A stretch of 64,000 nt of DNA from Pristiophorus japonicus (GCF_044704955.1 NC_091995.1:56544001-56608000); one strand, 5' to 3'; shown: positions 40,095 to 51,108, numbered from the stretch's first letter. Notes: generated from the letters alone by a model not told the origin. Translations and numbers: made by a program.

Positions 40095-42316
40095 CCAGTT
40101 AATTCAGAAACTAGGGTCCTGAACATAAGGAAAGGTAACTTTGATGGTATGAGGCGTGAATTGGCTAGAATAGACTGGCAAATGATACTCAAAGGGTTGA
40201 CGGTGGATAGGCAATGGCAAACATTTAAAAATCACATGGATGAACTTCAACAATTGTACATCCCTGTCTGGAGTAAAAACAAAACGGGGAAGGTGGCTCA
40301 ACCATGGCTAACAAGGGAAATTAAGGATAGTGTTAAATCCAAGGAAGAGGCATATAAATTGGCCAGAAAAAGCAGCAAACCTGAGGACTGGGAGAAATTT
40401 AGAATTCAGCAGAGGAGGACAAAGGGTTTGATTAAGAGGGGAAATAGAGTATGAGAGTAAACTTGCAGGGAACATAAAAACTGACTGCAAAAGCTTCTAT
40501 AGATATGTGAAGAGAGAAAGATTAGTGAAGACAAACATAGGTACCTTGCAGTCGAATTCAGGTGAATCTATAATGGGGAACAAAGAAATGGCAGAGCAAT
40601 TGAACAAATACTTTGGTTCTGTCTTCACGAAGGAAGACACAAATAACCTTCCGGAAATACTAGGGGACCAAGGGTCTAGCGAGAAGGAGGAACTGAAGGA
40701 AATCCTTATTAGTCAGGAAATTGTGTTAGGGAAATTGATGGGATTGAATGCCGATAAATCTCCAGGGCCTGATAGTCTGCATCCCAGAGTACTTAAGGAA
40801 GTGGCCCTAGAAATAGTGGATGCATTGGTGGTCATTTTCCAACATTCTAGAGACTCTGGATCTTTTCCTATGGATTGGAGGGTAGCTAATGTAACACCAC
40901 TTTTTTTTTTAAAAAAGGAGGGAGAGAGAAAACAGGGAATTATAGACCGGTTAGCCTGACATCAGTAGTGGGGAAAATGTTGGAATCAATTATTAAAGAT
41001 GTAATTTGGAAAGCAGTGACAGGATCGGTCCAAGTCAGCATGAATTTATGAAAGGGAAATCATGCTTGACAAATCTTCTAGAATTTTTTGAGGATATAAC
41101 TAGTAGAGTAGACAAGGGAGAATCAATGGATGTGGTGTATTTGGACTTTCAAAAGGCTTTTGACAAGGTCCCACACAAGAGATTGGTGTGCAAAATTAAA
41201 GCACATGGTTTGGGGTAATGTATTGAAGTGGATAGAGAACTGGTTGGCAGACAGGAAGCAAAGAGTAGGAATAAACGAATCCTTTTCAGTATGGCAGGCA
41301 GTGACTAGTGGGGTACCGCAAGGTTCAGTGCTGGGACCCCAGCTATTTACAATATACGTTAATGATTTAGACAAAGGAATTAAATGTAATATATCCAATT
41401 TTGCAGATGATACTAAACTGGGTGGCAGTGTGAGCTGTGCGGAGGATGCTAAGAGGCTGCAGGGTGACTTGGACAAGTTAAGTGAGTGGGCAAATGCATG
41501 ACAAGTGCAGTATAATGTAGATAAATGTGAGGTTATCCACTTTGGTGGTAAAAACACAAAGGCAGAATATTATCTGAATGATGACAGATTAGGAAAAGGG
41601 GAGGTGCAACGAGATCTGGGTGTCATGGTTCATCAGTCATTGAAAGTAGGCATGCAGGTACAGCAGGCAGTGAAGGCGGTAAATGGCATGTTGGCCTTCA
41701 TAGCGAGAGGATTTGAGTATAGCAGCAGAGAGGTTTTACTGCAGTTGTACAGGGCCTTGGTAAGGCCACACCTTGAATATTGTGTACAGTTTTGTTCTCC
41801 TAATCTGAGGAAGGACATTCTTGCTATTGAGGGAGTGCAGCGAAGGTTCACCAGACTGATTCCAGGGATGGCAGGACTGATATATGAAGAAAGATTGGAT
41901 CGACTAGGCTTATATTCACTGGAATTTAGAAGAATGAGAGGGGATCTCATAGAAACATATATAATTCTGACAGCATTGGACAGGTTAGATGCAGGAAGAA
42001 TGTTCCCGATATTGGGGAAGTTCAGAACCAGGGGTCACAATCTAAGGATAAGGGGCAAGACATTTAGGACCAAAATGAGGAGAAACTTCTTCACTCAGAG
42101 AATTGTGAACCTGTGGAATTCTCTACCACAGAAAGTTGTTGAGGCCAGTTTGTTAGATAGTTAGATGTGGCCCTTACGGCTAAAGGGATCAAGGGGTATG
42201 GAGAGAAAGCAGGAATGGGGTAATTAAGTTGCATAATCAGCCATGATCATATTGAATGGTGGTGCAGGCTCGAAGGGCCGAATGGCCTACTCCTGCACCT
42301 ATTTTCTATGTTTCTG
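40095..42316 (+). mobile_element. CR1 LINE ORF2 (RT) and 3'UTR, 5'-truncated
   Basis: KSCLTNLLEFF, SGVPQGSVLGP, FADDTK, RPHLEYCVQF. Tail TTTCTATGTTTCT. Confidence 0.93.
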
Positions 42317-42777
42317 TGATAATCTGTTTTAGCGATGTTGGTTGAGGGATAAATATTTGCTGGACAACTGGCCCGCTCTTCGTCCAATAGTAAGAGTTTA
42401 ACGTCAGCAAGGCCACATGTTCCGACAGTGCAGCGCTCCCTCAGTACTGTCCCTCCCACAGTGCAGCGCTCCCTCAGTACTGCCCCTCCCACAGTGCAGC
42501 GCTCCCTCAGTACTGCCCCTCCCACAGTGCAGCGCTCCCTCAGTACTGCCCCTCCCACAGTGCAGCGCTCCCTCAGTACTGCCCCTCCCACAGTGCAGCA
42601 CTCCCTCAGTACTGCCCCTCCCACAGTGCAGCGCTCCCTCAGTACTGCCCATCCCACAGTGCAGCACTCCCTCAGTACTGCCCATCCCACAGTGCAGCAC
42701 TCCCTCAGTACTGCCCCTCCCACAGTGCAGCACTCCCTCAGTACTGCCCCTCCCACAGTGCAGCACTCCCTCAGTAC
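42317..42777 (-). mobile_element. Deu-domain SINE fragment (SacSINE1/AmnSINE1-like) ending in a 33-bp tandem array
   Basis: Minus strand CAGTACTGAGGGAGCGCTGCACTGTCGGA...GACGTTAAAC...AATATTTATCCCTCAACCAACATC...AAAACAGATTATC matches the Deu-domain consensus as I recall it. About 11 copies of CAGTACTGCCCCTCCCACAGTGCAGCGCTCCCT. Confidence 0.75.
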
Positions 42778-43142
42778 TTTTTTTTTTTTATTCGTTCATG
42801 GGATGTGGGCGTTGCTGGCAAGGCCAGCATTTATTTCCCATTCATAATTGCCCTTAAAGGTGGTAGTGAGCCCACTTAAGTGCCCAAGCCTGAATGTCGT
42901 CCAGGTCTTGCTGCATGCGGGCATGGACTGCTCCATTATCTGAAGAGTTGTGAATGGAACTGAACACTGTGCAGTCATCAGCGAACATCTCCACTTCTGA
43001 CCTTATGATGGAGGGAAGGTCATTGATGAAGCAGCTGAAGATGGTTGGGCCTAGGACCCTGCCCTGAGGAGCTCCTGCAGCGATGTCCTGGGGCTGGGAT
43101 TATTGACCTCCAACCACCACAACCATCTTTCTTTGTACTAGA
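42778..43142 (-). mobile_element. Non-LTR retrotransposon remnant (3' tail joined to an RT fragment)
   Basis: Minus strand reads MFADDCTVFS...QQDLDDIQAW next to an A-rich tail. Clade not resolved. Confidence 0.6.
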
Positions 43143-43189
43143 TGGAAACTCCGATCCCCAACCACCAACTCCATCCCTCTCCCTGCTCA

Positions 43190-43684
43190 CTGTCCGAGGC
43201 CCGACCGGACCGGGCGCTGTCCGAAGGCCCGACCGGACCGGGCGCTGTCCGAAGGCCCGACCGGACCGGGCGCTGTCCGAAGGCCCGACCGGACCGGGCG
43301 CTGTCCGAAGGCCCGACCGGACCGGGCGCTGTCCGAAGGCCCGACCGGACCGGGCGCTGTCCGAAGGCCCGACCGGACCGGGCGCTGTCCGAAGGCCCGA
43401 CCGGACCGGGCGCTGTCCGAAGGCCCGACCGGACCGGGCGCTGTCCGAAGGCCCGACCGGACCGGGCGCTGTCCGAAGGCCCGACCGGACCGGGCGCTGT
43501 CCGAAGGCCCGACCGGACCGGGCGCTGTCCGAGGCCCGACCGGACCGGGCGCTGTCCGAGGCCCGACCGGACCGGGCGCTGTCCGAAGGCCCGACCGGAC
43601 CGGGCGCTGTCCGAGGCCCGACCGGACCGGGCGCTGTCCGAAGGCCCGACCGGACCGGGCGCTGTCCGAAGGCCCGACCGGACT
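43190..43684. repeat. 28-bp CpG-rich minisatellite CTGTCCGAAGGCCCGACCGGACCGGGCG, about 18 copies
   Basis: Near-identical units, a few of 27 bp (GAGG instead of GAAGG). Confidence 0.97.
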
Positions 43685-43699
43685 GGTCACAACCTCAGC

Positions 43700-44020
43700 C
43701 TCCTATTTGACCCCGAGATGAGCTTCTGACCCCCATATCCTGTCAATCACTAAGACCACCTACTTCCCCCTCTGTAACATCGTCCGTCTCTGCCCCGCCT
43801 CAGATCAAAGGCTGCTCAAACCCCCATCCATGCCACTGTTACCTCTACACCTGACTATTCCAAAACTCTCCTGGCCAGCCTCCCACATTCAACCCTCCAT
43901 AAACTGCAGCTCATCTAAAACTCCGCTGCCTGTATCCTAACTGACACTAAGTCCCACTCACCTATCACCCCTGCACTTGCTGACTCCCAGCCCAGCAACA
44001 CCTAGATTTCACAATTCTCA
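43700..44020 (+). mobile_element. Old L2-type LINE ORF2 fragment
   Basis: Decayed sequence resembling the L2 C-terminal region (…CCTACTTC…AACATCGTCCGTCTC…CTGCAGCTCATC…AACTCCGCTGCC). Confidence 0.55.
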
Positions 44021-45773: not shown

Positions 45774-46104
45774 CGATTTTGTACTTTTGTGCTTATCGGC
45801 CAAAAATGGGCATTATTTCCGGCCCTCGGCGAGGTCCCGCAAAAGCCGATTTTTGGCATGCAATGCGAATGTGCCGAAAACCAGCTTTCCCGATTTGTGA
45901 AGATATCTCTCGACGGATCCTTCGCATCCCCGGGAGAAGGACATCCGCGCGGGAGATATTGGGCTATTTGCCCATCTCTTACCCAGCGAATGTTCGAGGT
46001 CCCATAGACGTCTAAACTTCGGCGGTGTGTTAGTTAATTAAACACCGACCTATTGATCGGCTGGAAAGCCTACGACTCGAGACCCCAGTAAAGAAATCGG
46101 TATT

Positions 46105-47631
46105 ATGGCAGCAGGAGATAAGAGCAAAGAATTGCCTACAACTGTTAAAGGTGGGCAGGCACCACCTGAAGTTTCACTAGATTTAATTCTCGAACAGTTG
46201 AAAGAATACATAGAGCAACAATTCAACTTATCTAAAACCTGTATTAAGATCGAACAAAAGTACGGAACCTCCAAAGGACAATGGTCCTTGGACGAGATTA
46301 AAAGGGTCTGGGGAAAAACAACCCGTATGAAAAATAAAGAGTGAACTAGATGGTCCTTAGCGGTTATGGGCCAGATTCGAAAGCGGAATGAAATTATAAT
46401 GTGTTCCCAACATGATCGAGAACTGACCAGTACAAAGGATCCATTGCAAGCAGTTTGTGCACAGCTGCAACAGAAAAAACTTGAACTTGAAAAGCTGGAA
46501 GCGGAAGTTGGAGATCTTAAAGGTGAAATTAAAGAATGGAAAAAATCATTAGGTCAAGAGACAGTAATAGGAAAAGGAAAATGTATTGATAATTCCCAGA
46601 GTACTCATGTTTGGATAAATTAAAAGCGCAAACCCGAAGACACGACCGAGGAATAGATACGGATTCTGAATCCTCCGATGATGAAGAATTAGGGGTGCGC
46701 TTTGCCCCGTTTAAAAAAAGACGAGTTGTAGTCAAATCAGAAGAGACTGCGGAACCAAAAAAACAAAGAGAAGAGTGTATGCAGAATACCTTGGGTCTGC
46801 CGGAGCATGAACTGAGAAAATTGATAAATGGTCCAAGGAATTGCCCAATCCAAAGAAAGGGGGAGTAAAAACATGGGACCAATTGGACCGCTTAAGAAAT
46901 ATATATCAACTTCATCCCTGGGACGGAGTGCAAATTTTGACCATAATGGTGCCAAAAACACAGGGAAGAAAATTGCACGACAAGGTAGAAGAAGCTTTGG
47001 GGCAGAATTAGACGCAGGATGGGAGGTGATTAAACACTGGCTGCAAGCCTTCAGTCCAGCTAAGACAGACTGGGGAAAAATTGCAGCCTGCCAACAGAAA
47101 GGAACAGAGGAGGTCCTGGAGTATGACGAGCGGTTTAGATGCATGTGGCTAGAACATTCGGGTATGAATAATACGGATGAGGAAATGGATGAACAAGTGT
47201 TTGTACCCCTGAAAGCAGCTTTTGTGGCAGGTCCAAAGCCAGAACTGTCCAAAATGCTTAAGGTAGTGTTACCGGACTGAGAAGGTAGAGGAACTACCTT
47301 TGCAGCATTGGTGGATCGATGTAACCAATTAGATCGGGATATGGGAGCTAAAGTCCGAGCTGTACAGGCTATGGGATGGAAATCCCAGGATTCCGATAAA
47401 CAGTCATTTGGAAAATTACCCGGAAAATGTCATTATTGTGGGAAAGAAGGTCACTGGGCCAAGACATGCAGGGCAAAACAGCAAGGTCGTGGCTGGGGAA
47501 GAGGACGCAGCCAGTGATACAATTCAGCCAACAAACCAGGCTTGTCACAAGATAACGACCTCATAGAAGCATTTAAGCGACTGACAATACAACAACAGAA
47601 GGAATTACTTGGGATAGCAAAAAACGATTAG
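46105..47631 (+). pseudogene. gag: ERV gag (stops and frameshifts)
   Basis: Fragments 46105-46344, 46366-46623, 46611-46868, 46828-47280 and 47308-47517. MHR-like QKGTEEVLEYDERF. CCHC knuckle CHYCGKEGHWAKTC. Natural stop TAG at 47629-47631. Confidence 0.85.
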
Positions 47632-50600
47632 AGCCCACCCTGGCCCCCCTCCTCGCACTAATACAACAAAGGGGAGATGGGCTATATATAACTATGAAGG
47701 TGGGCGATAAGGATGTGGACTGTCTTTTAGACACAGGGGCGGAATTAACATGCTTACCCCTACAATATGGAGACTTTTTGCCGTTGGATGGTAGGGCACG
47801 TTCGGCCTATGGAGTTGGGGGCCATAAAATGGAAATTAAAAGGACAACACCGGTACTTATAGGGCTGGGTCCACATGAACTAACCACGCCGGTCTGGATA
47901 GGCCCAGTAGATCAACCCCTTTTGGGAATGGACGTTCTAATCCAAGTAGATTCATCGTTGCATTTCGAGGATGGTCGGGTGACATGGTCAATTAGAACTT
48001 TGAAGAAAGAAGAATTGAAGGAACACCCAATATGGGCTAAAGATAAGAACGATTGTGGCCTACTCCAGATGGAGCCTGCGTCATTTACAGGGACCAAGCC
48101 TCCATGCACTAAACAGTATCCCATCAGTCCAACTGCCATCGCGGGAATCTTACCGGTTATTCAGCAATTGGAGAAACAAGGGGTGCTTATTAAAACGCAT
48201 AGCTCCTCCAATAGCCCCGTGTGGCCGGTACAGAAATCTAATGAGACTTGGCGTTTGACTGTCGATTATAGGAAAGCTAACCAGTGTATTGATCAAAAAG
48301 CTCCTTTGGTCGCAGATCCCTCCACCATTTTTAATGCCCTCAAACCAGAACATAAATATTTCTCGGTTATAGATATGGCCAACGGATTTTGGTCGGTGCC
48401 TCTGGCACCGGAGGTTCGACAGTGGTTTGCTTTCACTGTCCAAGGACAACAGTATACTTGGACCCAGTTACCACAGGGTTTCCACAACAGCCCTACGGTA
48501 TTCCACATAGTTTTACAAAGCCATTTGCGAGAATTACCTCCCGTCATCCACAGTCATCCAATATGTAGACGATATTCTGCTAGCTTCAAACACGGAAGAC
48601 CAGCATGAACAAGATTTACGAGCTTTGCTGGATCACCTTCGGCTGAAAGGACATAAAGCCAGCATTGACAAAGCACAAATATCCCAAGAAGAGGTTGTAT
48701 ACCTGGGACAAAAGATTTCACAAGGAAAGAGAGAACTTACCCAGGATAGAACTGCAGCCATTCGGGCTGCTAAAAAACCCACCACTATTCAGGAACTAAG
48801 GTCTTTTTTGGAATTGTGTAACTTTAACAGAAATTGGATTGACTCCTTCACACAGCTTGCTCAGCCATTGAATGATATTTTAAAGCGGAAACGTGCCTCT
48901 AAAGAAGCCATCACCCTCACTAAAGAACAGCAAGAGGCCTTCCTGAGTTTGAAAAAGGCTTTGTGTTCGGCACCGGCTCTGGGAATCCCCGACAGTGGTA
49001 AGCCATTTACCCTGTTTGTTCATGAGAAAGAAGGATATATGACAGCTATACTGACACAAGAACATGGGGATCTGCAAAGACCTATTGGCTATTATTCGGC
49101 AAAACTGGATGCGGAAGTTGCCAAAGGGCCATGGAAGCTACATGTCGAGCGGTAATGACCACTGCGGGTCTAGTGCTCGACCAAAAGCTGATTGTCAAGT
49201 GTCCCCACACCGTACACGCTTTGCTGTCTATGAATAGAGTGTCTCAGGTGACAGCAGCAAGATGGACCCGCTGGACAGCAGTTTTGGAAGCTCCTAATCT
49301 CCATATCATCCGGGCCAGCCCGGTTAATCCCGCAACTATGCTCCCGATGTCAGAATCGAGGGAGCAAGAGGGGGGAGAATGTGAAGAGCATGACTGCGTG
49401 GAGATTTTAAAAGAAACAGAAGAAGCAGCCTTAGCAGCAGAGGAGCCTCTGCACAACCCAGACCTCATCCTGTTTACAGATGGATCCTTCTTTGTTGACA
49501 ATGGTACCAGAAAAACAGGATGGGCAGTTACAACCTTATATGAGGTAGTGGCAAAAGAATGTTTACTCTCAGGAACGTCAGCACAACAGGCCGAGTTACA
49601 GGCCCTGTCAGAAGCATGTCGAATAGCAGAAGGACAGACAGCTAATGTCTACACAGATTCGCGTTATGCTTGTGGAGTCGCTCACGACTTTGGTCTGTTA
49701 TGGCGGAAAAGAGGATTCCTCACTGCTGCTGGTACACCTATCCGAAATGGAAAAGAAGTCCGAGACTTACTGGAGGCCATACAATTACCTCAGGAAGTGT
49801 CCATCCTGAAGTGTAAGGCCCATACCAAGGAAAATATCACAGAAGCACAGGGAAATGCCCTAGCCGACCAGGCAGCTAAAGATGCCGCCTCACAGGGCGT
49901 TCCTCCAGAAGAACCAACACAGATGTGCAGATTGAAAGCACTCAGGACTCTGACACGAGACCTTCAAACAATGCAAGGCGAGTGCTCCCGAGGGGAAAAA
50001 TGGTCATGGATTGAGGCAGGAATTAAGCTATGCGAAGATGGTGTCTGAGACAAAGAGTTACCGACAAGCCAGTCGCGCCACAAGCGCTTATGCCTTTTTT
50101 AGCCCAACAGATCCACTCGTGGGGACACTTGGCCTCACAACAGATGACGGCACGGTTCCAGAAAAGCTGGTGGGGTCGGGGATTTAAAAAACATGCCCAG
50201 CTGGTAACAGACCGCTGTGTGGTCTGCCAGAAAAATAATTCTGGACCCATCACGGTAATGCCCCAACTGAGGCCCCCTGCCCCTGTCGGACCATTCCAGC
50301 ATCTGCAGGTTGATTATATATCTCTTCCTTCATGCCAAGGATACACTAACATTCTTGTCATGGTCGACAGATTCTCTAGATGGGTAGAAGCTGTCCCAAC
50401 TAAAAGAGCCACAGCCAATCACACTGCAAAGGTCTTGTGTAAGGATTACATTCCCCGATGGGGAGTCCCGAGTAGCATTGACTCAGATCAGGGAACACAC
50501 TTCGCAGGTGCTGTCTGCCAAGAAGTCTGTAGGTTACTGAACATTACGTGGGATTTACACTGTCCTTATCATCCACAATCATCAGGACAAGTAGAACGAA

Positions 50601-51084
50601 TGAATCGAAGTCTGAAACAACGGCTTGCCAAATATCACCAAGAAGGAACACCATGGCCCCAGGCACTACCAGTAGTGCTATGTAGCATTAGGGCAACCCC
50701 GAACAGAACTACAGGTCTAAGCCCATTTGAAATTATAACAGGAAGACCCATGTCGCTGCCAGAAACTATCGATTTACGGAAAGCTGATGTTCACTTAATG
50801 AGTGACACTTTGTTATCATACTGTCAGAACTTAACCAATGCTATTAGTTCCGTTTCCCGACGGGTATCGGCAGCTTGGGGTAATCCACCCGAAGGAGGAC
50901 ACGACATCATCCGGGAGTCTGGGTGTATGTGAAAAAGTTGCATAAAGAATCTTTGGATGCCAAGTGGGAGGGACCTTATCAAGTGTTATTGACCACCCAG
51001 GCAGCTGTAAAAGTCCAAGGAAAGAAAGCCTGGATCCACGCTTCACACGTTAAACGAGCACCCGTAACTGAAGCTGAAATCTAA
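47619..51084 (+). pseudogene. pol: ERV pro-pol (PR, RT, tether, RNase H, IN) with about 4 frameshifts
   Basis: LLDTGA; LPQGFHNSP; YVDD at about 48563 in a shifted frame; LFTDGS, SAQQAEL and YTDSRY; IN LQVDY, SDQGTHF and VERMN; C-terminal [11 protein letters not shown]...WIHASHVK. Confidence 0.93.
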
Positions 51085-51108
51085 TAATGACAATTACTTT
51101 TTGCAAAA

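Follow-up and report, generated by a model that had tools for sequence, protein, structure and literature searches.

A predicted -1 ribosomal frameshift signal at the gag-pol junction of a shark endogenous retrovirus family

Gag-pol junctions of the closest described retroviruses

Readthrough of a stop codon is the strategy on record for gamma- and epsilonretroviruses and for SnRV, SSSV, ZFERV and RMERV (PMC13517186). In WDSV, WEHV1, SSSV, ZFERV and RMERV, gag and pol are reported to occupy one frame with a stop codon, an in-frame gag-pol stop is also given for SnRV, and this 2026 review names readthrough for all aquatic retroviruses that it covers (PMC13517186). These fish retroviruses agree with the first-pass annotation of the present locus, which had named stop readthrough as the way gamma- and epsilonretroviruses express pol. 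In-frame stops with readthrough are likewise described for Ovex1 (PMC2717909) and XtERV-S (PMC8278194), and spumaviruses keep pol in a different frame with a separate start (PMC8278194). Retrovirus taxonomy has relied on translational strategy as a global marker; the same source assigned a -1 gag-pro offset to 14 of its 82 gamma-like ERVs from human and chicken and cautioned about post-insertion indels (PMC1224870). The name "clade Mu" has been given to aquatic class I viruses (PMC6001957). Lokiretroviruses have fish hosts, a dual RNase H and an env resembling paramyxovirus fusion proteins; the related Bhikhari elements carry a coiled-coil Gag, and screening of three cartilaginous fish genomes in that study found no lokiretrovirus (PMC7947760).

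The element analyzed here lies in a window of 64,000 nucleotides from the shark Pristiophorus japonicus (GCF_044704955.1 NC_091995.1:56544001-56608000); positions are counted from the first letter of this window, and all features lie on the + strand. It shares with epsilonretroviruses and other aquatic class I viruses a fish host, a gamma-type env, a single zinc knuckle and a protease (pro) in the pol frame, and differs from epsilonretroviruses in a -1 gag-pol offset, an RT outside the crown and a Gag with no Gag_p30 match. The gag-pro frameshift of MMTV and HTLV uses the heptamer A_AAA_AAC, and HIV-1 has a gag-pol frameshift with a stem-loop. The -1 slip that we propose for the shark family, on a heptamer with a downstream structure, would resemble that of MMTV, HTLV and HIV-1, albeit known here from sequence; unlike theirs, its Pol seems unrelated (the RTs of HIV and FIV match at 52-58 bits), its env is gamma-type and its hosts are sharks and fish. 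A single shift with pro in the pol frame would be shared with lentiviruses (PMC1224870), and on mammalian ribosomes A_AAA_AAC, a textbook shift site, ranks with the most shift-prone heptamers (PMC5009743).

The RT motifs WRLTVDYR and NGFWS are like those of SnRV as printed in the supplement of PMC7947760, and as in XtERV-S (PMC8278194) a non-class-I RT is joined to a gamma-type env and a Ser primer. Compared with SnRV and the SnRV-like or class III elements (Ovex1, XtERV-S and lineage I of the elephant shark CmiERV), the shark RT is nearer to class I (95/87). Fish hosts and a dual RNase H are also features of lokiretroviruses, whose RT has TRCPFG (PMC7947760) in contrast to LPQG here. The shark clade may well have been included under "Mu" in RT-only surveys, without the junction being examined (PMC6001957). 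Our literature search, with subscription papers and Repbase entries mostly outside it, found no description of this junction.

The junction among genomic copies and the structure predicted downstream

In the window copy the 3' end of gag, taken in the zinc-knuckle frame, is GCA AAA AAC GAT TAG. The slippery heptamer A_AAA_AAC (47619-47625) is thereby in X XXY YYZ phase relative to gag, as the first-pass annotation had it, and the gag stop codon TAG (47629-47631) follows one codon past the heptamer. The same annotation was correct in describing the -1 frame as open from the heptamer into the protease: this frame is open starting at 47577, giving a gag/pol overlap of 47577-47631, and continues uninterrupted through KKRLEPTLAP...LLDTGA to the RT. 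The gag frame meets five additional stops at 47659-47746, all less than 120 nt past the gag end, and readthrough would therefore be unable to yield pol; the single gag-pol frame with a readthrough stop, typical of gamma- and epsilonretroviruses, is not the arrangement found. An in-phase heptamer is by itself weak evidence. Five other in-phase slippery heptamers occur in the ~510 codons of gag, a frequency from which the chance of one falling inside the 17-codon overlap is calculated as ~15%. The case for a frameshift signal is strong because the junction is conserved across copies and lineages, rather than from the heptamer alone, with the downstream gene open in -1 and kept so in relatives (in cyprinids by deduction, see below).

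A genome-wide pattern search across the junction, with a free gap of 4-8 nt and the 5.9 Gb genome as search space, matched 1,488 places, which is a minimum copy number. Exactly 6 nt was the length of the run in 1,469 of these, A-run length variants accounted for the other 19/1,488, and among the matches listed six A were present in 98/100 (of 1,488 in total). Since the pattern ends only 6 nt beyond the gag stop, 60 fetched loci, the window locus among them, were additionally aligned, and 58 of them cover the stretch from zinc knuckle to protease. Across that stretch the -1 offset is kept in 51/58 copies and missing from seven, the heptamer is intact in 53/58, and the gag TAG is present in 55/58. 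The subset retrieved with a protease query instead of the junction (n=28) retains the offset in 22, the heptamer in 24 and the TAG in all 28 copies, and contigs of two further studies span the junction without gaps. A private 1-bp indel in the window copy, the outcome by which the first-pass annotation would have been overturned, is rejected by these figures (1,469/1,488 with the spacing, 51/58 with the offset, 53/58 with the heptamer), since offset and heptamer are family-wide. Three of the junction matches lie ~5,416 bp apart on the same strand (C1:266045194-266056056) and likely represent a tandem array of a shortened provirus.

Energy minimization predicts a stimulatory stem-loop of 73 nt (47633-47705) that begins 7 nt past the heptamer, a spacing within the canonical 5-9 nt. 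It consists of helices P1 (47633-47639 with 47699-47705, GCCCACC/GGUGGGC), P2 (47641-47646 with 47679-47684) and P3 (47649-47654 with 47671-47676), with pair probabilities of 0.76-1.0. The minimum-energy fold of 47626-47725 reaches -32.6 kcal/mol, and P1-P3 dominate at all tested lengths that take in 47705. An 80-nt segment (47630-47709), the length of which was picked after the fold had been seen, has -31.1 kcal/mol and a z of -3.1, with 7/1000 shuffles equally low; among tiled provirus windows (n=158) one is more stable and two have a lower z. The first-pass annotation had drawn a different stem, AGCCCA (47632-47637) with TGGGCT (47678-47683). The complementarity exists, whereas folding assigns this pairing a probability of 0.0; the drawn structure has -13.5 kcal/mol, and the best fold with that stem forced has -18.3, against -32.6 for the minimum-energy fold; this stem was rejected as the dominant fold. 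Folding thus put a longer stem-loop in its place, the 3' arm of P1 (47699-47705) lying beyond the end of the annotated interval at 47696.

Among 71 copies, variation is as frequent at stem positions (46/2,679) as at loop positions (42/2,475), and so gives no comparative support to the predicted structure, a comparison that is uninformative because most changes post-date insertion. The contigs of the two further studies can be aligned over 47646-47725, gap-free and with 11 differences; three of these differences are detailed, two at unpaired sites and one at a paired site with its partner outside the coverage. No Rfam family matched the junction structure, and a brute-force scan for H-type pseudoknots returned only 5-bp, G-U-rich second stems, none of them convincing.

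It is accordingly possible, albeit on the unlikely side, that frameshifting is real and its stimulator is something other than the predicted stem-loop, be it the AGCCCA/TGGGCT stem, a pseudoknot or the nearby stop codon. This alternative, which is compatible with our main reading and not exclusive of it, draws on the missing covariation support, on the tendency of folding programs to overlook pseudoknots and on the feasibility of the 6-bp AGCCCA/TGGGCT stem at a 6-nt spacer. The dominance of P1-P3 at every length including 47705 and the poor second stems of the H-type scan speak for the predicted stem-loop instead.

Relatives in other species and the route to Pol

A horn shark protein is 72% identical, and the horn shark pol frame has SKKL at the corresponding junction place. 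Pol relatives at 45-60% identity are present in gar, anchovy, characins and cyprinids, and a cyprinid-type Gag, linked to its Pol by natural fusions, proved to be a homolog of the shark Gag at 24% identity (E 2e-21). No DNA of the distant relatives turned up when metagenome, viral and prokaryote collections were scanned, and the teleost junction was deduced from protein clusters, with 92 Gag-like matches examined. A Gag end of the form [EK]KN-stop is seen in 29/92 clusters, one of them named Labeo rohita, and a lost stop with reading through to the next stop five codons on in 2/92; the other two frames are shown by 2/92 and 4/92. Gag is fused straight into pol in frame in 6/92 clusters, each single-member and none with an RT domain; a sublineage with another tail accounts for 20/92, and 29/92 are uninformative. 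Several Labeo rohita Gags from this lineage carry erroneous database names (UvrABC protein B, GMP synthase or tyrosine-tRNA ligase).

One cyprinid Gag end was solved together with a pol-frame peptide at offsets from -9 to +9, requiring at least three overlapping codons. The solution is unique: an offset of -1, the heptamer A AAA AA(C/T) and a stop directly behind it, with a third-frame peptide (worked by hand) fixing the C. Cyprinid relatives thus appear to share A_AAA_AAC in the -1 arrangement, and with the same junction deduced there, frameshifting is likely a trait of the shark-and-fish lineage. The second cyprinid Gag sublineage (20 clusters) has a conserved T/A/I-L-K/N-x-P-L tail that, together with the Astyanax pol start (FFKL), is compatible with a candidate U_UUA_AAN slippery site.

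Whether pol was translated can be judged from codon variants in 20 copies, divided into rare (1-2 copies) and shared (at least 3 copies), with CpG sites left in. Rare variants comprise 399 non-synonymous or stop against 165 synonymous changes (omega ~1), and shared variants 17 against 27, with omega ~0.1-0.4 depending on the segment (shared versus rare, Fisher p 3e-5). Given the purifying selection on shared variants, translation of pol likely went on as the family multiplied. A pol-frame ATG ahead of the protease is found in only 1/20 copies, the other sequencing runs compared have G in the ATG that the window copy shows at 47694, and a strong splice acceptor is not evident at 47577-47730, where every AG has at most 11 pyrimidines in the preceding 20 bases. 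With pol likely translated, an ATG nearly absent and no strong acceptor evident, frameshifting is the remaining simple route.

The near absence of an ATG and of a pyrimidine-rich AG also weighs against a foamy-like route, in which a spliced mRNA or a start codon of its own would serve pol and the heptamer would be incidental. Such a route was suggested by the RT fragment, which among solved structures matches foamy RTs best (124 bits versus 94 for MLV and 52-58 for HIV and FIV), and spumaviruses do keep pol in a separate frame with its own start (PMC8278194). Yet the shark RT does not group with that of feline foamy virus and the heptamer recurs, by deduction, in cyprinids, and we regard this route as very unlikely. 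The selection on shared pol variants and the cyprinid junction, which was deduced where Gag identity is 24%, are similarly hard to reconcile with descent from a defective founder that carried a 1-base indel and spread through a helper virus using readthrough. Defective sublineages did spread here (env deletions in 9/20 copies) and A-runs are prone to indels, but outside-protein searches (best 150 and 129 candidates) gave matches within a single narrow range of identity and showed no second, closer family in this genome, and such a founder is highly improbable. Polymerase slippage on the A6, giving some RNAs with pol in frame and no ribosomal shift, has the homopolymer and its 19/1,488 length variants to recommend it and is scarcely credible, six A being short for efficient polymerase slippage and the heptamer phase and 7-nt spacer to a strong predicted fold suiting ribosomal slippage.

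The family therefore very probably made Gag-Pol by -1 ribosomal frameshifting at A_AAA_AAC, the signal, as read from sequence, being family-wide and close to the standard type. By established retroviral biology, ribosomes bearing Lys and Asn tRNAs on AAA AAC would stall at the predicted stem-loop 7 nt downstream; in a minority both tRNAs would slip back one base in tandem, so that TAG is bypassed and translation proceeds into protease, RT and integrase. The majority would terminate one codon later, releasing a Gag that ends two residues after the slip site. The mechanism is already known; the lineage that would use it is unexpected.

Placement, anatomy and age of the family

Trees were built from 63 of 249 proteins, picked for length and motif variety, plus the window element. 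Rows that we take to be gamma-like or ERV-L-like were so labeled by motif. The SnRV-like labels come from motifs as printed in the supplement of PMC7947760. The RT tree retained 60 rows after a 70% coverage filter, its only named viruses being FFV and WEHV1, with no class II or lokiretrovirus rows. The elements of shark, gar and teleosts fall into a single RT clade (100/99), apart from the SnRV-like, ERV-L-like and foamy rows and sister (95/87) to the gamma plus epsilon crown (100/99) rather than inside it. Grouping of the RT with WEHV1, a group named after inspection of the tree, is rejected (p-AU 0.027). The RNase H groups with WEHV1 (91/86) within a class I group (99/97), and the integrase falls among class I rows (94/95 group) next to two frog elements, both domains being of class I type. 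The bullfrog and Xenopus tropicalis elements have an SnRV-like RT and an integrase grouping with the shark family (92/92).

As to class II, lentiviral RTs score far below MLV and foamy ones, and the trees contained no class II row. The features of a foamy virus (an RT with spumaviruses, a separate pol start, no zinc knuckle) are not those of the element. A lokiretrovirus was likewise rejected, the RT motifs differing by eye from those in the supplement of PMC7947760 and the env being TLV_coat.

Neither its RT nor its translation strategy places the element within the gamma/epsilon crown, and with the RT outside, a mere change of strategy in a gamma- or epsilonretrovirus would be too simple a description. 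The first-pass picture of a frameshifting fish ERV with a gamma-type env holds for env and junction, and needs amending in that the RT lies beyond the gamma/epsilon crown and the host is a shark, with teleost relatives as well. Whether this is a previously undescribed shark-gar-teleost lineage on the gamma/epsilon stem that uses -1 frameshifting is, in our judgment, evenly balanced; neighbors on both sides use readthrough, and if true it would imply at least one switch of recoding strategy on this branch. The rule that readthrough marks the gamma/epsilon branch would then fail at the branch base, and a widespread frameshifting lineage beside class I would be evidence that retroviruses exchanged recoding modes early in their history. 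Such a lineage would also offer a natural pair for studying how one signal converts into the other; the stop lies one codon past the slippery site in the shark and directly behind it in cyprinids. For annotation, pipelines would call such a junction a disabling frameshift.

The window copy is a dead provirus, spanning ~45994-53088 and 5'-truncated: it lacks the 5' LTR and primer site, and its likeness to other copies starts at 45994. Its gag (46105-47631), with several stops and indels, encodes a coiled-coil-like N-terminal stretch, a capsid and one CCHC zinc knuckle (47428-47469; Pfam zf-CCHC, E 1e-4), with no Pfam match to Gag_p30 found. The coiled-coil-like N-terminal part (46345-46617), which has no Pfam match to gamma-type matrix or p30, is reminiscent of Gags with coiled coils in Bhikhari and foamy elements. 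Pro-pol (47577-51090), beginning in the -1 frame, comprises protease, RT, tether, RNase H and integrase, with Pfam matches for protease, RT, RNase H and integrase, and in this copy shifts frame four times (near 48540, 49130, 50040 and 50910). The env (51109-52461) is gamma-type, as annotated earlier (Pfam TLV_coat, E 4.8e-17), with what we take to be CWVC in SU and an immunosuppressive-domain motif and CX6CC in TM. A polypurine tract (52715-52734) precedes the 3' LTR (52735-53088; TG...CA, ~355 bp).

Twenty copies were fetched at 10 kb for the LTR, env, primer-site and pol-variant analyses. Two LTRs are present in 17 of them, with identities of 93.4-99.2% (median 97.3%), a divergence that, under the slow rate which PMC4422223 assumes for sharks, would amount, very uncertainly, to tens of millions of years. 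Env deletions (equivalent to window 51232-52317) occur in 9/20, seven sharing one start point. One variant of the primer site complements the 3' end of a host tRNA-Ser(CGA) gene; a second, for which there is no match, is carried by most env-deleted copies, which suggests that an env-less sublineage spread on its own. Elsewhere in the window, a 26-nt tandem satellite runs from position 8 onwards with >600 copies in register, further tandem repeats lie at 42350-42880 and 43020-43730, and an open frame at 41502-42164 resembles the terminal part of a reverse transcriptase from a CR1-type LINE.
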